NCBI GenBank assembly: GCA_027486675.1
Contig: JAIXOQ010000006.1
Coordinates: 9,125-73,124 of the forward strand
Length of the DNA stretch: 64,000 nucleotides
Origin: Pseudomonadota bacterium
GTDB taxonomy: Bacteria > Bdellovibrionota > UBA1018 > CAIMNF01
Direction: 5' to 3'
A program made the position numbers and the translations under genes. Position 1 is the first letter of the stretch, and each line of letters starts with the position of its first letter. Below, in pieces: positions 1,509 through 12,180 of this stretch. Below the pieces are notes generated by a model. It did no database searches and was not told the origin of the DNA. It saw only the letters and a list, made by a program, of their open reading frames with translations.

Positions 1509-2645
1509 GTGTCCAAAATGCTCATGCGTTATCTCTCGGCGCCCATTCAGGCAGACCTTCAGAAAAAAATGGTCTTTTTAGGTGGGCCTAGGCAAGTGGG
1601 GAAGACTACGCTCGCACAAGGGTTGATTCATGATTTCTACGACGGCCATCCGGCTTACCTGAATTGGGACAGTGGCCCTGACCGAAAAAAGATCAAAAAC
1701 AGGGAGTGGCCAAACGCAGAACAGCTGATTGTCTTAGATGAAGTCCATAAGGCAAAGACTTGGCGAAACATGGTCAAGGGGTTCTACGATACCTTAAAAA
1801 ATACGCATTCATTTCTGATTACGGGGTCAGCCCGATTGGATCATTTTCGCAAAGGAGGCGATTCCCTTCTTGGGCGCTACCACTACTATCGGCTGCATCC
1901 TTACTCGGTAGCTGAGCTGGGTTACAAGAAGGATTGCTTAAAAAACCTCATGAACTTTGGTGGTTTTCCGGAGCCATATACCGAGGCAGATCCACGGAAT
2001 TTACGACGTTGGCACAATCAGAGGTTAGATCGGCTGATTCGGACGGATCTGAGAGATTGGGAAGATGTAAAGGACATGGAAAAAATTTTCGCTCTTGCGG
2101 AGGAACTGCCCAATCGCGTGGGATCACCTCTGTCTATTGCATCTCTTGCGCGCGATATCGAAGCAGATTTTAAGACGATCAAACGGTGGCTTGGGATCTT
2201 GTCCTCACTTTATTACTCCTTTTCAATCCCGCCTTTTGGGTCAGCGAAGATTCGAGCTGTAAAAAAAGAGCAGAAGCTCTATTTGTGGGACTGGAGCCAG
2301 GTTGAAAGCCCTGGAATTCGATTTGAAAACCTAGTTGCATCCCACCTGCTGAAGTACTGTCACTACCAGGAAGATGTGGAAGGACATCGCATGGAGCTTC
2401 GTTACTTGCGGGACACAGACAAGCGGGAGATTGACTTTGTGGTTCTTAAGAATAAAAAACCGGTCTTTGCGGTTGAATGTAAACACGGTGGGTCATCCGT
2501 ATCCCCTCATTTGTTTTACTTTCGGGATCGAACCGCGATACCTCGGTTTTACCAAGTGCATCTAGGTACTCAGTCTAGGCAAGTAGACGATCAGATATCA
2601 GTGATGCCATTTGAGGCCTTTTCCAAGGAGGTCGGCCTGCAGTAG
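1509..2645 (+). CDS. AAA+ ATPase with a C-terminal PD-(D/E)XK-like domain (DUF4143/COG1373-type)
   Basis: Walker A GGPRQVGKTT; DEVH Walker B; C-terminal REIDFVV...AVECK matches the D...ExK nuclease-fold signature. Confidence 0.75.
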   Translation: MSKMLMRYLSAPIQADLQKKMVFLGGPRQVGKTTLAQGLIHDFYDGHPAYLNWDSGPDRKKIKNREWPNAEQLIVLDEVHKAKTWRNMVKGFYDTLKNTHSFLITGSARLDHFRKGGDSLLGRYHYYRLHPYSVAELGYKKDCLKNLMNFGGFPEPYTEADPRNLRRWHNQRLDRLIRTDLRDWEDVKDMEKIFALAEELPNRVGSPLSIASLARDIEADFKTIKRWLGILSSLYYSFSIPPFGSAKIRAVKKEQKLYLWDWSQVESPGIRFENLVASHLLKYCHYQEDVEGHRMELRYLRDTDKREIDFVVLKNKKPVFAVECKHGGSSVSPHLFYFRDRTAIPRFYQVHLGTQSRQVDDQISVMPFEAFSKEVGLQ

Positions 2646-2679
2646 ACAACACTCCGGAAATGGCGTACAATATCGGAGT

Positions 2680-3864
2680 ATGCTCCGAAGACACTTTAAC
2701 CCCTCAAAAACACAGAGCTTTTTCCTCTTTGGCCCCCGGGGTACTGGTAAGTCAACCCTACTGAGGTCGCTCTTTTTAGATGCGCCAGCCACTCTCTGGA
2801 TCGACCTACTGACCGAAGCAGATGAAGACCGGTATGGGCGGCATCCGGATCAGCTCTCAGAGGTGCTTGCCACCGATCGCTACCGGACTGTTGTCATTGA
2901 TGAGATTCAAAAGGCGCCCAAGTTGCTCGATATCGTTCATCTGGAAATTGAAAAGAGAAAAACACGATTTGCCCTCACGGGTTCGAGTGCGAGGAAGCTT
3001 CGCCGCGCAGGGGCAAACCTGCTTGCCGGACGAGCGATCTCTTACAGTCTGGCGCCTTTGACGCACTTGGAACTCGGGAATCAGTTTGACTTAGATACTG
3101 CGCTTCGGTTTGGCACCTTACCTTCATGTGTTTCATTTTCAAACGAAGAGGAGGTCGGACTCTATCTTCGCTCTTATGTGAAGTCCTATTTGAAAGAAGA
3201 GATCGTGGCAGAGCAGATCGTTCGAAATGTGCGGCCCTTTCAAGATTTCTTAGAAGTTGCCGCCCAAACAAATGGTCAGATCGTAAGCTACGCTAAGATC
3301 GCACGTGATGTAGGAGTGGACGATAAGACCATCGCAAACTACTTCGAGATTCTAGTGGATACTTTAGTTGGATTTCAGCTGCCCCCTTTTCATAGGTCCA
3401 TCCGAAAGCGTCAAAAAATGCAGAGCAAATTCTATTTTTTTGATCCGGGGGTAAAGCGCGCACTGGATCGCACGCTTTCGATTCCTCTTCAGCCAAAAAC
3501 CTTTGCTTTTGGAAAGGCTTTTGAGCACTGGGTCATCTTAGAAGTCCATAGGCTGAATGAATACTCCGGCGTTGATTTCCGCTTCAGCTACATGATGACC
3601 AAAGACGATGCTGAAATTGACCTGATCATTGAGCGCCCCGGACAGCCGGACCTTCTCATCGAGATTAAATCCTCTGATTCACCGCAAGAGACAGAAGTGC
3701 GCGGATTGCAGACCTTTCAAAGTGACTGGGACCGACCCTGCGAGGCCCAGATGTGGTCCAATGACCCTGTGGCAAAAAAAATTGGGGATGTCCTTTGTTT
3801 GCATTGGGTGGAGGGGTTACAGAATCTGTTTCCTACTCTCCCCGCCAAATTCCTAACGCCATGA
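2680..3864 (+). CDS. AAA+ ATPase with a C-terminal PD-(D/E)XK-like domain (DUF4143/COG1373-type), paralog of 16466..17599
   Basis: Walker A FGPRGTGKST; IDEIQ Walker B; C-terminal AEIDLII...LIEIK. The start was moved to the internal Met (MLRRHF) so the gene does not overlap the upstream one. Confidence 0.75.
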   Translation: MLRRHFNPSKTQSFFLFGPRGTGKSTLLRSLFLDAPATLWIDLLTEADEDRYGRHPDQLSEVLATDRYRTVVIDEIQKAPKLLDIVHLEIEKRKTRFALTGSSARKLRRAGANLLAGRAISYSLAPLTHLELGNQFDLDTALRFGTLPSCVSFSNEEEVGLYLRSYVKSYLKEEIVAEQIVRNVRPFQDFLEVAAQTNGQIVSYAKIARDVGVDDKTIANYFEILVDTLVGFQLPPFHRSIRKRQKMQSKFYFFDPGVKRALDRTLSIPLQPKTFAFGKAFEHWVILEVHRLNEYSGVDFRFSYMMTKDDAEIDLIIERPGQPDLLIEIKSSDSPQETEVRGLQTFQSDWDRPCEAQMWSNDPVAKKIGDVLCLHWVEGLQNLFPTLPAKFLTP

Positions 3865-7991: not shown

Positions 7992-8879
7992 ATGGTGAAA
8001 CTCATAGAACGGGTCGCGCCTTCACTCACCAATGTCCTGGTCTTAGGTGAAAGTGGAACGGGCAAAGAGTTAGTCGCCCGAGCATTGCATGAACTGAGTC
8101 CCGCTTCTTCCCACGCTTTTATCGCGGTCAACTGTGGGGCCATCCCAGAAACCCTCATTGAGAGCGAGCTTTTCGGACACAAGAAGGGATCATTCACAGG
8201 TGCTGTTGCTGATAAGCCAGGGCTCTTTGAAGCAGCAGACGGTGGCACGCTTTTCTTAGATGAAATTGGGGAGCTTCCGCTTTCCATGCAGGTGAAGTTG
8301 CTCCGTGCACTTCAGGATCGATCGGTGAGGCGCGTTGGGGAGAACCGCGACGTCAAAGTGACTGCTCGCATTGTTGCTGCTACAAACAGAGATTTAGAAG
8401 AAGGTGTGCGGCGCGGTACATTCCGCGAAGATCTGTATTTTAGGTTGAATGTTATTCAAATTGAGACCCCCCCACTTCGGGCACGCGGCACTGATATTGA
8501 GGCGCTTGCGCAGATCTTTTTAGATCGCATGGGAAAAAAGTTATCGCGGAAGTTTGAAGGATTTACCGCAGAGGCTCTCAATGTTTTGCGCACTCATCGC
8601 TGGCCCGGAAACATCCGTGAATTAGAAAACGTGGTGGAGCGCGCCGCAACTTTAGAAACTGAGGCTTGGATCACGCCTCTCACGTTCCCGCCCGAGGTGG
8701 TGAAGGCTGCGGCCCAGTCGGGAAAAGAAGTGGGCGTGCTGACTTTGAAGGCAGACTTTTCTTTAGGGCAGGTGGATCTCTCGGCCGTGATGAAGAACGT
8801 GCGTGCGTTCTATGAACGTGAGGCGCTGATCGTGACTTTAGGGGATGAAGTGAAGGCGAAGGTCCTGATTCGGGAGTGA
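7992..8879 (+). CDS. sigma-54-dependent transcriptional activator lacking a receiver domain; the C-terminal HTH looks truncated or degenerate
   Basis: Walker A GESGTGKE 19 aa after the Met; GSFTGA (GAFTGA-type) loop; WPGNIRELEN; an in-frame stop at 7833-7835 inside pilC excludes an N-terminal REC domain; the protein ends ...EREALIVTLGDEVKAKVLIRE without a Fis-type recognition helix. Confidence 0.75.
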   Translation: MVKLIERVAPSLTNVLVLGESGTGKELVARALHELSPASSHAFIAVNCGAIPETLIESELFGHKKGSFTGAVADKPGLFEAADGGTLFLDEIGELPLSMQVKLLRALQDRSVRRVGENRDVKVTARIVAATNRDLEEGVRRGTFREDLYFRLNVIQIETPPLRARGTDIEALAQIFLDRMGKKLSRKFEGFTAEALNVLRTHRWPGNIRELENVVERAATLETEAWITPLTFPPEVVKAAAQSGKEVGVLTLKADFSLGQVDLSAVMKNVRAFYEREALIVTLGDEVKAKVLIRE

Positions 8880-8895
8880 GGTTTCATAGGGATGG

Positions 8896-9405
8896 TTATG
8901 CCTCCATCAGCTCTTCAAGAAAAAACTGAGTTTTTGCCGGAATCTTTGCCTTTGGAAAGTACCCTTCGATCAATTTAAAAACAACTGAAGCATCCTTGAT
9001 CTGAAGGTGTCGAATGAGAAATTGCACGTCATCCTTGTCGTGGCTATCCCAACGAGCGCTGAGGCACTTCATGGCCAGCATGTATCTGGGTTCCGGCGCC
9101 CAAACTCTAAGATGCGAGAGCTCGAGAACGGATTCTTTTTGGAACTCACCTTGGATGAACACCTTTGCAGCATCATTCAGCCAGTCGGGTGCAAGCTGAT
9201 GCGCTTCTCCTATTTCTGCAACAAACTTTCTGATCAATGCAGTGGGCGCAAAAATCGCATCCACATCTTTGGTCGCGTCCCTGGCTTGGTAGACTAAACA
9301 CATCACGGCACCGCCTACGATGCCGACCTCGCCTCGATCCTGATTTTGCCGGAGTTTTTCGTTGAGCTCAAAAAACAGATCTTTGATTTGCGTCGCTTTT
9401 AGCAT
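8896..9405 (-). CDS. nucleotidyltransferase of the AbiEii / DUF1814-like fold (short form); putative toxin
   Basis: GIVGGAVMCLVYQARDATKDVDAIF matches the GG[TA]A..L.Y...R.[ST].D[LV]D NTase motif of AbiEii-family toxins; 169 aa. Confidence 0.5.
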   Translation of the reverse strand: MLKATQIKDLFFELNEKLRQNQDRGEVGIVGGAVMCLVYQARDATKDVDAIFAPTALIRKFVAEIGEAHQLAPDWLNDAAKVFIQGEFQKESVLELSHLRVWAPEPRYMLAMKCLSARWDSHDKDDVQFLIRHLQIKDASVVFKLIEGYFPKAKIPAKTQFFLEELMEA

Positions 9406-9417
9406 GGGTCTCCATTG

Positions 9418-10005
9418 TTAAGCACGATTTAGGAAGTTTTCTTGCACGAAGATATTATTTCTTCGGTACGCCAATGGCGATTCTAGGATTGCGGTCGCTT
9501 TGAGGGACTCCATTCCGGAAACAAACCAGGGCTTGTCTAAGTAATAACTTTTCCCAGCCCAAGTGGGGGGGTCGATCCCTGCCTCATCACTCAATGAGCA
9601 TGCGATCGAGGCAAGCAATGCCCGAAGTGAATGAGGGAGTTCGGTAGGTGGAGGGAGCAGAAGAAGGAGCGGATTTACGGTTCGTCTAAATTCATCCACA
9701 AGTTCCATGAAGTGAAGTTTCCAACTGTGCTCCCCATCATGGATGGTTTTCGTGGCCACAGCATAAGTGCAGAAGTCCGGATTCAGCTCTTCCTCAGGCA
9801 GAGTTAAAATTGCCACCCTGCGGTCTACTGCCCCAGCAGTTGCGGCCAGACTTTGGATGGAAATGGAGGGAAGGTGTGCCTCGACATGGCGCACAGTCAG
9901 GCGCGAAATCTGGCCGTGGCCGGCCACGGCGGATTCCGTGAGGCGTCTATCGTTCCTCACTCTCTTGAGTGCGTCCCACCACAAGGGCGTTATAATAGAC
10001 TTCAT
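9418..10005 (-). CDS. hypothetical protein encoded 12 nt upstream of the NTase gene; candidate cognate partner or antitoxin (AbiEi-sized); the start is uncertain
   Basis: same strand as the NTase and tightly spaced; 195 aa; the N-terminal coding region contains the GTGGCCGGCCAC palindrome (encoding AVAGHG), so the true start may be the internal Met at about 9708. Confidence 0.35.
   Translation of the reverse strand: MKSIITPLWWDALKRVRNDRRLTESAVAGHGQISRLTVRHVEAHLPSISIQSLAATAGAVDRRVAILTLPEEELNPDFCTYAVATKTIHDGEHSWKLHFMELVDEFRRTVNPLLLLLPPPTELPHSLRALLASIACSLSDEAGIDPPTWAGKSYYLDKPWFVSGMESLKATAILESPLAYRRNNIFVQENFLNRA
9914..9932. repeat. REP-like palindromic element CCGTGGCCGGCCACGGCGG (core GTGGCCGGCCAC)
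   Basis: read directly: the 12-bp core is a perfect palindrome; two more copies are at 10157-10178 and 11496-11510. Confidence 0.5.
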
Positions 10006-10156
10006 ATGTATATTATAACATGCAATTATAGCTTAGCAATAGAAGTGGGCTCAGGCCCCCCGGGATGCTTTTTGATGCGCATACGCTCATTTCACCGCGA
10101 AAAACGGGCACTAGTGCAGCAGAAGTCATGGTTGGCCGGGAGGCAGGAAATCCGTG

Positions 10157-10178
10157 CCGCCGTGGCCGGCCGCGGCGG
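10157..10178. repeat. REP-like element, imperfect copy (CCGCCGTGGCCGGCCGCGGCGG)
   Basis: direct repeat of the 9914 element (GCCGTGGCCGGCC[A/G]CGGCGG[A/C]TTC), 243 bp downstream, in the intergenic AT-rich fic leader. Confidence 0.5.
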
Positions 10179-10270: not shown

Positions 10271-11491
10271 GTGCAGGACAAGTTGCCGGACATTTTAGAG
10301 CCCATAGACAGGTCAGAATTTGTCTCACTCATGGAGCCTATGCTCATCGCAGAGGGCTCTCATCACCGCCATGAACTCACGGAACTCGCCCTGGAGTTAG
10401 TGGCTCGGTCGAGTGGGTTCTCGCGCTCCCTCCCTGAGGGGTTGTGCGCCAGTCTCGCAGACTTGGTGAGGTCGATGAATTGTTACTACAGCAATCTGAT
10501 CGAAGGACACAATACGCATCCGGTCGATATCGATCGGGCTCTGAAGCAGCAGTATGACAGCGATCCTGGCCGTCGGAGCTTGCAGAAAGAGGCCTTGGCC
10601 CACATCTCAGTCCAAAAGTGGATTGATGAGGGGGGACTTAAGGGACGGGTCTTCTTTGTTGAAAGTATTCAGGAAGTGCATCGCCGATTTTGCGACTTAT
10701 TACCCGAAGAGCTGCTGCAAGTAGAAAAGAAAATGACGGGCGAGCGTTTGCAGGTCATCGGTGGGGAGTTTCGACAGCAAGATGTGCAGGTTGGCCTGCA
10801 CGTGCCGGTGAGTCCTGGATCCGTACCGCGATTCCTGGCTCGGTATCAGGAGGTCTATTCTGGGCTTGGAAAGGCTGCATCCATTGTGGCGGCCGCAGCA
10901 GCGCACCATCGGCTGCTTTGGATACATCCATTCCTAGATGGAAATGGGCGTGTCGCTAGGTTGATTTCGCACGCAGGTTTACTGGAATGCTTAGACACCC
11001 GTGGTCTTTGGTCAGTAGCGCGTGGGCTGGCCAGGAATGTAACCGAGTATAAAAATCATTTGGCACTCTGTGATTTGGTGAGGCGAAATGACCTGGATGG
11101 CCGGGGAAATTTAAGCGAAGAGGAGTTAGCAGCATTCACACGTTTTTTCCTAAAAACGTGCCTCGATCAGGTGAATTTTATGGCTGAGCTCATGAAGCCA
11201 GAGCGCTTGCGTGCCAGGATTCAGCTTTGGACTGAAGAGGAAATCAGGCTTAAGAATCTGCCCCATCACGCAGGTCGGGTCATGGATGCGCTGCTGTACC
11301 GTGGTGAGGTGCCTCGAAACGAAGTGGCTGAAATCTTAGGCGTAGGCGAGCGCCATGCCCGGCGTACAATGCAGACCCTGATCGAGCGGGATATTGTTCA
11401 AGTGTCTGGCGCCCGTGATCCTTATCGCCTTGTTTTTTCGGCTGCCCATGCTGCTCGTTGGCTGCCCGGGCTTTTTCCAGATGTGGGATAG
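10271..11491 (+). CDS. fic: Fic/Doc family protein (class II: intramolecular inhibitory helix; C-terminal wHTH-like region)
   Basis: canonical Fic motif HPFLDGNGRVAR; N-terminal inhibitory motif S-N-L-I-E-G fits (S/T)xxxE(G/N); GTG start (an alternative ATG lies 60 nt downstream); 406 aa. Confidence 0.85.
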   Translation: MQDKLPDILEPIDRSEFVSLMEPMLIAEGSHHRHELTELALELVARSSGFSRSLPEGLCASLADLVRSMNCYYSNLIEGHNTHPVDIDRALKQQYDSDPGRRSLQKEALAHISVQKWIDEGGLKGRVFFVESIQEVHRRFCDLLPEELLQVEKKMTGERLQVIGGEFRQQDVQVGLHVPVSPGSVPRFLARYQEVYSGLGKAASIVAAAAAHHRLLWIHPFLDGNGRVARLISHAGLLECLDTRGLWSVARGLARNVTEYKNHLALCDLVRRNDLDGRGNLSEEELAAFTRFFLKTCLDQVNFMAELMKPERLRARIQLWTEEEIRLKNLPHHAGRVMDALLYRGEVPRNEVAEILGVGERHARRTMQTLIERDIVQVSGARDPYRLVFSAAHAARWLPGLFPDVG

Positions 11492-11495
11492 GGTT

Positions 11496-11510
11496 CGTGG
11501 CCGGCCACGG
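11496..11510. repeat. REP-like palindromic element TCGTGGCCGGCCACGG, third copy, just 3' of fic
   Basis: read directly. Confidence 0.5.
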
Positions 11511-11514
11511 GAAA

Positions 11515-11571: not shown

Positions 11572-12180
11572 TTATTGCGTATTGCAGGCTGTCCCGATCA
11601 ACGTTCCTGCACTCACTGAACCGACAACGTAGTTCTGGTTGGCACCAGCGGCCCCGGCGGCGACAGCACCTGATACTAGACACATGAACTGACCAGCTCC
11701 AACAGTGCCCGCGGCGAAGTAACCAACTGATGCAACGGGCGCGGCGGTGGGTGCTGCTGCTGCCTGCCAGTTGTTAGCCGGGGTTGACGCAGTAACAGTG
11801 CCGACAGCTGTTCCCCTTGCTACCGCTGCTGTAGCAACAGGATTTATGCTATTTGCAAAGTAGTCGGTGCAGCCCGCGACTGCAGCGGCGTTATAGTTTG
11901 ATCCTACAGAGAAAAATCTCTGTCCTTCAGCAGCCGAGTAGCCCATCTCGCCCAAGCACATGCTGTATGTGCCTCCAGATGTAGCGGAAAAGGCCTGGGA
12001 GACGGCCCCAATCGCACCCAGTGCTGATCTTCCTTCTGCGCCCCGCGCACGCGCCTGAAAGTTTCTATATTGCGGAATTGCAATAGCAGCCAAAATTCCG
12101 ATGATAGCAACGACCACCATCAATTCGACCAGTGTAAAACCCCGTTCGTTTCTCAATGCTTTCAAATTCCCCATAGTCAT
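11572..12180 (-). CDS. pilA: type IVa major pilin PilA
   Basis: class III signal peptide [14 protein letters not shown]|[24 protein letters not shown] (Gly-1, Phe+1, Glu+5); Gly/Ala-rich C-terminal domain; 202 aa. Confidence 0.9.

Follow-up and report, generated by a model that had tools for sequence, protein, structure and literature searches.

In a 64,000-nucleotide stretch of contig JAIXOQ010000006.1 (assembly GCA_027486675.1, from the Bdellovibrionota), two small adjacent genes encode a nucleotidyltransferase (NTase) and a partner protein with a helix-turn-helix (HTH) domain. We refer to the whole stretch as the window, and all coordinates are positions in the window. We propose that the two genes form an autoregulated toxin–antitoxin module, in which a MenT1-like NTase would be the toxin and the partner would represent a new family of antitoxins. 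We put the probability of this at roughly 60%. Both genes are on the minus strand: the partner gene is upstream (9418-10005, ATG start, 195 amino acids) and the NTase gene is downstream (8896-9405, ATG start, 169 amino acids). The 12-nt spacer between them (9406-9417) carries a GGAG Shine-Dalgarno sequence for the NTase. A reading of the sequence alone, before any database search (the sequence-only reading), had already described two genes of these lengths on the same strand and 12 nt apart, and both the list of open reading frames and the sequence bear it out.

The gene pair is real, and is far beyond what could arise by chance, because both families are large and because key residues are conserved, even in plasmid homologs that are just 30% identical. 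Sequence search identified 2206 clusters of NTase homologs. For the partner, a single-sequence search identified 72 clusters and a profile search identified 1166 clusters. When we seeded a scan with the NTase (one genome per species), we found at least 497 loci in species-representative genomes. These are from Bdellovibrionota, Elusimicrobiota, Planctomycetota, Acidobacteriota, Verrucomicrobiota, Chloroflexota, and others, including Paenibacillus. We judged linkage on 84 loci, and a homolog of the partner adjoins the NTase in 82 of them; both misses are at the ends of contigs. We also seeded a scan with the C-terminal domain of the partner (CTD), using alignment A3, as the broader alignment A5 was too diverse for scanning loci. 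The NTase lies directly downstream and on the same strand in 73 of the 80 metagenome loci, and five of the seven misses are at contig ends (73 of 75 testable loci). Whether the pair co-occurs in other genomes had been raised by the sequence-only reading, and with these counts and the plasmids described below, the linkage is near-obligate.

The pair occurs in three arrangements. In 50 loci, a gene for an HTH-CTD protein is followed by the NTase gene; the gap is mostly -1 to +3 nt, so that the translation of the two may be coupled. In other loci, a short gene that encodes only the CTD precedes the NTase. This order is reversed in the more distant members of the family, where the NTase comes first and the short CTD gene second, and the two often overlap by 4 nt. 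We found no conserved third gene in the loci with a short CTD gene. The neighborhoods of the pair vary (some loci are among housekeeping genes), and its distribution across phyla is patchy at 50-65% identity.

The NTase is also present on 33 plasmids, from Mycobacterium (20 of the 33), Rhodococcus, Curtobacterium, Tessaracoccus, Brevibacillus, and others. The mycobacterial hosts include M. intracellulare, M. avium, and M. kansasii. These plasmid homologs are annotated as "DUF6036 family nucleotidyltransferase." The CTD was adjacent or fused to the NTase in all eight of the plasmid contexts that we examined (five adjacent genes identified by HMM, two fusions, and Brevibacillus), with the CTD gene on the M. 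intracellulare plasmid being detected only marginally by the HMM (E = 1.5e-4). Some of the plasmid copies adjoin ParDE, RES/Xre, or PIN modules and lie in islands that are rich in toxin–antitoxin systems. The two fusions have opposite orders. Plasmid pMK12478 of M. kansasii encodes an HTH-like-CTD-NTase protein of 359 amino acids (WP_007172361.1; positions 2434-3513 of locus L085), and plasmid pGZ01 of Rhodococcus encodes an NTase-CTD protein of 275 amino acids (WP_064257179.1; positions 2486-3313 of locus L093). The C-terminus of the pGZ01 protein and the CTD protein that M. intracellulare encodes as a separate gene share 52% identity (E = 1e-38). The pGZ01 protein has lost the second catalytic aspartate (it has D-V-T).

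Among the loci that we examined, we did not see any intact NTase without a partner. The partner does occur without an NTase: locus L095 encodes a DUF433-CTD protein, and loci L148 and L150 have a remnant of the CTD beside a HipA-like kinase. In L148 (1192-2749), an 80-amino-acid remnant of the CTD directly follows the kinase gene, and the NTase is absent. A different toxin module seems to have taken the place of the front part of the partner gene, with loss of the NTase. In another decayed locus, P0418, a degenerate half of an NTase is fused to the CTD.

The NTase matches Pfam family DUF6036 (PF19502) with 31.3 bits, versus a gathering cutoff of 23.6 bits (E = 2.2e-7), and it also has a weak match to DUF2204. 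It has no match in NCBIfam or among the models of PADLOC. All of the 48 homologs that we compared to Pfam also match DUF6036, and none of them matches the AbiEii family (PF08843), even at E ≤ 10. Neither the NTase nor the 48 homologs match NTP_transf_2, which is the Pfam family of the MNT-type nucleotidyltransferases.

The AlphaFold2 model of the NTase (mean pLDDT of 89) has a Pol-beta topology followed by four helices. The top matches of this model to the Protein Data Bank (PDB), using Foldseek, are Pb27 (5uvd), MenT1 (8an4, 8an5, and 8rr5; probability 0.87-0.98, TM 0.35-0.42), ANT(2'')-Ia, and JHP933 (4ok0). A recent list of the DUF1814 superfamily comprises AbiEii, MenT1-4, Pb27, ANT(2'')-Ia, and JHP933 (10.64898/2026.01.19.700257). 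The top matches are exactly proteins on this list, which would be consistent with a distant relationship to the DUF1814 toxins. Searches of the PDB with the single sequences of both proteins, or with a narrow profile of the NTase (A1), gave no matches. Once the NTase profile was broadened with plasmid homologs of 30-37% identity (profile A4), MenT1 was the first match (E = 0.02, 17 bits) and Pb27 was second (E = 0.37).

The putative active site is similar as well. In proteins of the DUF1814 superfamily, motifs I and II have the form hG[GS]-x(~15)-DhD, with a spacing above the usual 9-13 residues and an extra arginine in motif II (PMC3985639). The NTase has V30-G31-G32, then 14 residues, then D47-V-D49, along with a family-specific arginine (R42). 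This region (G31-G32 ... R42 .. T45-K-D47-V-D49; 9259-9315, minus strand) has conserved columns and is predicted to bind the metal and the nucleotide. Motif III is a lysine among hydrophobic residues and then an arginine, and motif IV is +DxxD (Dy et al., PMC3985639). In the NTase, these are LAMK113CLSAR118 and then D120..D123-K-D-D126 (9028-9069, minus strand), also in conserved columns and with the DxxD formed by D123 and D126, and they are spaced more closely than in AbiEii or MenT. (In the actinobacterial homologs, motif IV is RDGDD or RDLDD.) Six residues do not vary across the family (G31, G32, D47, K113, R118, and D126), and four others (R42, T45, D49, and D123) are nearly invariant.

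The sequence-only reading had described a signature of GGxA..L.Y...R.[ST].DVD. The length, G-G, L, Y, T, and DVD of this signature are in register with the actual string (GGAVMCLVYQARDATKDVD, or G31-G-A-V-M-C-L-V-Y-Q-A-R42-D-A-T45-K-D47-V-D49), but the alanine and the arginine are each one position earlier. It had also held that the signature defines AbiEii-type toxins. The G-G...D-x-D core is common to all Pol-beta nucleotidyltransferases, so by itself the core does not; only the extra arginine, and the serine or threonine that precedes the first aspartate by two residues, point to DUF1814.

In the alignment of profile A4 to MenT1 (by HMMER), G31-G32 aligns with the G-G of MenT1, T45 with T39, D47 with D41, K113 with K137, D123 with D149, and D126 with D152. 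The counterpart of motifs I and II in MenT1 is LVGG...RFTRDVD. T39, D41, K137, and D152 are active-site residues of MenT1 that were identified and mutated (PMC10435456), and in this alignment all four have counterparts in the NTase (T45, D47, K113, and D126). MenT1 is from the MenAT1 system of Mycobacterium tuberculosis (Rv0078B/Rv0078A). It is the best match to the PDB by profile and among the best by fold, and both proteins are small single-domain enzymes (196 amino acids versus 169) in which the G-G, [R]..T-x-D-x-D, K, and DxxD elements align one-to-one. Both systems are two-gene operons with the antitoxin first (or, in the window, the proposed antitoxin). The NTase differs from MenT1 in its Pfam family (DUF6036), in being shorter by about 27 residues, and in the spacing of its key residues (13 residues from the lysine to the aspartate instead of 15, and 68 residues from the threonine to the lysine instead of 98). 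From the aligned residues and the predicted structure, we conclude that the NTase is probably a compact and distant relative of the MenT1 branch (COG4849) of the DUF1814 superfamily and that it lies outside of the AbiEii family of Pfam.

Since its highest TM is to ANT(2'')-Ia, an enzyme of comparable length (177 amino acids), we also considered whether the pair is not a toxin–antitoxin system at all. The NTase could be a non-toxic enzyme, regulated or with two subunits, that acts on a small molecule, an antibiotic (as ANT(2'')-Ia does), or a protein, with the partner as an adaptor for the substrate and as a regulator. Fusions in both orders, and the loci that are amid housekeeping genes, would fit with this. 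However, the validated residues of the MenT1 toxin are retained, including the regulatory threonine, the distribution across phyla is patchy, and some plasmid copies adjoin other toxin–antitoxin pairs. The tight coupling of the two genes, the predicted repression of their own promoter, the swapping or loss of the DNA-binding module between members of the family, and the decayed remnants in L148 and P0418 also argue against it, so we consider a non-toxic role to be unlikely.

The partner combines an XRE/Cro-type HTH domain (approximately residues 10-62; 9820-9978, minus strand) with an undescribed and mostly helical domain of about 115 residues (the CTD, residues 79-195; 9421-9771, minus strand; alignments A2, A3, and A5). 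Going by its profiles and its predicted structure, it is not AbiEi. The partner's sequence alone gives only weak HTH matches (HTH_37, E = 0.11; HTH_VI from PADLOC, 1e-3), and its NCBIfam matches are also generic and weak. Many of its homologs of about 186-200 amino acids contain HTH_3 (PF01381), and the family profile matches SinR, CylR2, and HipB in the PDB at E of about 1e-4. The AlphaFold2 model of the partner (pLDDT of 92.6, pTM of 0.86) places the HTH close to HigA2, HipB, and C-proteins (Foldseek probability of 1.0, target TM of about 0.75). The sequence-only reading had seen no obvious winged HTH of the AbiEi type. There is indeed no winged helix, but that reading had overlooked the XRE-type HTH.

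The CTD has no Pfam domain in any of the 1166 homologs, no match in the PDB by profile or by Foldseek, and no match in the viral structure library BFVD. Specifically, neither the structures of AbiEi or MenA nor the antitoxin chain of 8an5 (MenA1) are among the PDB matches of the partner. An exhaustive HMMER search found the CTD at the extreme C-terminus in all of 949 clusters (at 50% identity). These proteins fall into two size classes: about 186-200 amino acids (HTH and CTD) and about 105-145 amino acids (CTD alone). The DNA-binding module is variable, being HTH_3, DUF433 (in one protein), or absent. The best-conserved segments of the CTD are PWFVSG and ESP..FRRNNIFV..NFL.RA, with the latter at the extreme C-terminus. 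In the widest alignment (A5), the only invariant residues are one tryptophan, one proline, and one leucine, with no catalytic constellation. This suggests that the CTD serves for binding and not for catalysis, and it speaks against an RNase of the HEPN type. The suggestion by the sequence-only reading that the partner might be a new type of antitoxin still stands, as the partner is not AbiEi and its C-terminal half, with no match in Pfam or the PDB, is of a different and undescribed type. It also differs from the antitoxin of MenT1: MenA1 is a single helix of 68 amino acids without a DNA-binding domain, from a narrow family with 21 homologs (PMC10435456), while the partner has 195 amino acids, an XRE HTH, and a multi-helix domain of about 115 residues that is found in many phyla.

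The sequence-only reading had viewed the two genes as an AbiE-like (AbiEi/AbiEii) pair. It also gave AbiEi as being of about the partner's size (195 amino acids), which would fit such a pair. A canonical abortive-infection system of the AbiE type, merely shortened, would account for the bicistronic layout with the antitoxin first, for inverted repeats at the promoter, and for the four readable motifs of DUF1814. AbiE and the MenAT3 and MenAT4 systems (an antitoxin from COG5340 and a toxin from COG2253/PF08843) have the same layout of a two-domain antitoxin followed by the NTase. In those systems, the antitoxin has an N-terminal DNA-binding domain and a C-terminal neutralizing domain, and represses its own promoter via inverted repeats, which is also what we propose for the partner. 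AbiEii and MenT3 also have T65 and S78, respectively, at two residues ahead of the first catalytic aspartate, and the extra arginine in motif II, as does the NTase. Nevertheless, we think that there is almost no chance that the pair is canonical AbiE. None of the 48 homologs of the NTase match PF08843; the NTase is about 120 residues shorter than the toxins of those systems; and its nearest relative is MenT1 (COG4849), rather than COG2253, which contains AbiEii. AbiEi, MenA3, and MenA4 have a winged helix where the partner has an XRE HTH, and the mostly helical C-terminal domain of the partner is unrelated to theirs, with no structural match to AbiEi or MenA by profile or by Foldseek. No AbiE model or other defense model in PADLOC matches the pair. 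As the tests for PF08843 and for AbiEi both failed, we exclude canonical AbiE. What remains of the original assignment is the relationship at the level of the superfamily: the nearest characterized relatives of the NTase, by Foldseek and by PDB profile, are toxins of the AbiEii/MenT type, while its Pfam family is DUF6036 and not PF08843. Profile searches with both proteins thus identified DUF6036 and, with the broad profile, MenT1, but did not identify AbiEii. The description of the NTase as a minimal AbiEii-like enzyme holds up in this broader sense, as its catalytic residues and its putative phospho-acceptor align with those of MenT1. The label of "type IV" is dated, as AbiE has been reclassified as type VII (2026 preprint, 10.64898/2026.01.19.700257).

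Several lines of evidence suggest that the NTase, and not the partner, is the toxin. Its nearest characterized relatives are toxins. Its active site is invariant while the CTD diverges freely, and it is more conserved overall (mean column identity of 67%, versus 47% for the partner). The DNA-binding domain is on the CTD protein, and the orphans are always the CTD protein, both of which suggest that the partner is the antitoxin. The opposite polarity is known from the HepT/MntA systems (type VII, HEPN/MNT), in which the NTase is the antitoxin and nucleotidylylates a toxic partner. HepT/MntA also consists of a minimal NTase and a small helical protein (about 110-140 amino acids). In the distant loci of our family, where the NTase comes first and is followed by the short CTD gene with a 4-nt overlap, the order is that of mntA-hepT. 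In the close family, several polar residues of the CTD are strongly conserved, which would also fit this polarity. Also, the HEPN partners of MNT proteins were at first mistaken for substrate-binding subunits, and we count this precedent in favor of reversed polarity. But the CTD family lacks the Rx4-6H motif of HEPN, has no invariant polar residue in the wider alignment, and has no match to HEPN or any other Pfam family. The NTase has no match to NTP_transf_2, and its structural neighbors are the DUF1814 toxins rather than MntA. Finally, the DNA-binding domain is fused to the protein other than the NTase, as would be usual if that protein is the antitoxin, and orphan CTD genes exist. Overall, we consider reversed polarity to be improbable. 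The more specific idea that the CTD is itself a HEPN domain was rejected, as the wider family shows neither a conserved R...H nor any polar residue that is invariant. Finding either gene order within one family is not unusual for DUF1814 systems, as both are known (RlegTA and SanaTA).

The region upstream of the partner gene contains a sigma-70-like promoter on the minus strand (10012-10039), with a -35 box of TTGCTA, a 16-nt spacer that includes a TG, and a -10 box of TATAAT (10 of 12 matches in a promoter scan). The -10 box (10017-10012) ends just 6 nt ahead of the ATG of the partner at 10005, so its mRNA is probably leaderless. By eye, several homologous loci have a similarly short distance of about 6-7 nt (for example, L029, L045, L050, and L052). 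In contrast to the partner, the NTase gene has an ordinary Shine-Dalgarno sequence. An inverted repeat, GTTATAATAGAC / GTATATTATAAC (9989-10019), is a candidate operator: its 12-nt arms (9989-10000 and 10008-10019) are complementary at 11 of 12 positions, are separated by 7 nt, and span the -10 box and the start codon. Palindromes are present within -70 to +12 of the start of the partner in 27 of 45 homologous loci, compared to 8% of shuffled sequences and 10% of random genomic windows. The palindrome in the homologous loci is typically TTGAC[AG]TAnTATAnTA[CT]GTCAA (as in TTGACGTAATATATTACGTCAA), and it lies over the -35 box and the spacer. Toxin–antitoxin operons that repress themselves classically have such a layout, with a palindrome at the promoter.

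We propose the following mechanism. The XRE domain of the partner, probably as a dimer, would bind the palindrome over the operon's promoter and start codon, and the CTD would bind and neutralize the NTase. If free, the NTase would arrest growth; by analogy with MenT1, MenT3, and AbiEii, it would most likely do so by extending the 3'-CCA ends of tRNAs with nucleotides, which would block aminoacylation. Neutralization would be by direct binding, possibly followed by auto-phosphorylation of T45 that is induced by the partner, as in type VII systems. A serine or threonine is found two residues ahead of the first catalytic aspartate in MenT1 (T39), MenT3 (S78), and AbiEii (T65) (PMC10435456, PMC11375011, and PMC3985639). 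The T39A mutant of MenT1 is still toxic, as the S78A mutant of MenT3 is reported to be, and this residue is the acceptor for auto-phosphorylation that is induced by the antitoxin (PMC11375011 and preprint 10.64898/2026.01.19.700257). T45 is at the equivalent position in the alignments and is a candidate phospho-acceptor. In the broad family alignment, this position is a threonine in all but one of the sequences, which has a serine, and this conservation suggests a similar switch. We are less confident in the specific target and in the phosphorylation than in the toxin–antitoxin assignment as a whole.

More broadly, the pair shows the general traits of toxin–antitoxin systems: the genes are small, adjacent, and co-directional, with tight spacing and near-obligate linkage; the distribution is patchy and extends to plasmids; and the partner has a DNA-binding domain while the operon's promoter has a palindrome. 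Other observations weigh against our proposal. No member of the family has been studied experimentally, and we found no paper on DUF6036, PF19502, or this pairing of genes in the library that we searched. Of the five AlphaFold2 models of the NTase, four had a pLDDT of just 63-67, and a single one was confident (89). The TM to MenT1 is low (0.35-0.42), the highest value (0.50-0.52) being that to a resistance enzyme, ANT(2'')-Ia, and the link by sequence to MenT1 (E = 0.02, 17 bits) is statistically marginal on its own. The NTase in the window does not match PF08843 at E ≤ 1, and neither does any homolog. A tblastn search of a phage collection found no match to either protein, and PADLOC has no model for either beyond the generic HTH_VI for the partner, so a role in defense is unsupported. 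The base composition of the locus gives no sign of recent acquisition. The fusions in both orders would fit equally well with a two-subunit enzyme or with an autoinhibited single-chain effector.

A variant of this last idea is that the pair is a two-part effector in which the CTD, rather than being a passive antitoxin, does the sensing or serves as the substrate. It might be a sensor that holds the NTase inactive until a phage or a stress provides a signal, or it might be the target of nucleotidylylation, with the polarity reversed as in HepT/MntA. The sensor version could apply to the single-chain forms on the mycobacterial and Rhodococcus plasmids (pMK12478 and pGZ01), which have the putative neutralizing domain covalently attached to the enzyme, as in CapRel-type systems. 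CapRel(SJ46) is a fused and autoinhibited toxin–antitoxin protein. Unlike CapRel(SJ46), the enzyme here is a Pol-beta NTase and not of the RelA/SpoT type, and the window carries the two-gene form. We view a two-part effector as a minor possibility; if it is correct, either version would be a new type of toxin–antitoxin or defense system that is based on a previously undescribed fold.

The toxins of the MenT/AbiEii class have become understood only recently: they block translation by extending the 3' ends of tRNAs, and they are turned off when unrelated antitoxins induce their self-phosphorylation. MenT antitoxins are already known from three unrelated families, so a fourth family, together with a still smaller toxin, would extend a known kind of system rather than form a new category. 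Under our toxin–antitoxin proposal, the pair would be a large and unstudied sister family (over 2,000 clusters of the NTase, at least 497 loci, and 33 plasmids) that joins a fourth and structurally undescribed type of antitoxin to an enzyme that is, to date, the smallest of its class. If this is correct, then the NTase defines the minimal catalytic core of this class of toxins, and both DUF6036 and an unannotated protein domain gain a function. Because the acceptor threonine is conserved, the pair would also test whether auto-phosphorylation that is induced by the antitoxin is universal. The natural fusions and the conserved arrangement of promoter and operator make the pair experimentally tractable.

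The pair lies within a cluster of type IV pilus genes (pilB-pilT-pilC ... and a pilin at 11572-12180). On the plus strand at 7992-8879 is an open reading frame for a sigma-54 activator (295 amino acids), whose stop codon is 16 nt from that of the convergent NTase gene. This protein has only the AAA+ and lid domains, with neither a receiver domain nor a Fis-type HTH, and its C-terminus (...EREALIVTLGDEVKAKVLIRE*) resembles an HTH_8 that has been cut off. Insertion of the pair and of a neighboring gene for a Fic-domain protein into the pilus cluster may have truncated this gene. The Fic protein (10271-11491, plus strand, 406 amino acids) is encoded divergently from the partner, has a C-terminal winged-helix region, and matches the SoFic model of PADLOC (8.6e-26). 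The pair and the Fic gene may be a small defense or toxin islet. In locus L088, a different Fic gene (132 amino acids) is about 1.5 kb from the homologous pair.

A GC-rich palindrome, GCCGTGGCCGGCCACGGC (with the core GTGGCCGGCCAC), is present in three copies within 1.6 kb (9913-9930, 10159-10176, and 11494-11511) and nowhere else in the window. Three matches were not seen in any of 100 shuffles. One copy, which is perfect, is inside the partner gene and encodes AVAGHG of the HTH; another is between the partner gene and the Fic gene and resembles a terminator hairpin; and the third is 3 nt past the stop codon of the Fic gene, which is thus flanked by two copies. The palindrome might serve as a terminator, as an operator, or in recombination. 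Genes for AAA_14/DUF4143 ATPases lie close to the pair, at a distance of no more than a few kb, in several loci that are unrelated (at about 1518-3864 in the window, at 7026-8246 in L001, and at 2756-4177 in L148), and this recurrence may be a coincidence or may reflect a shared type of island.

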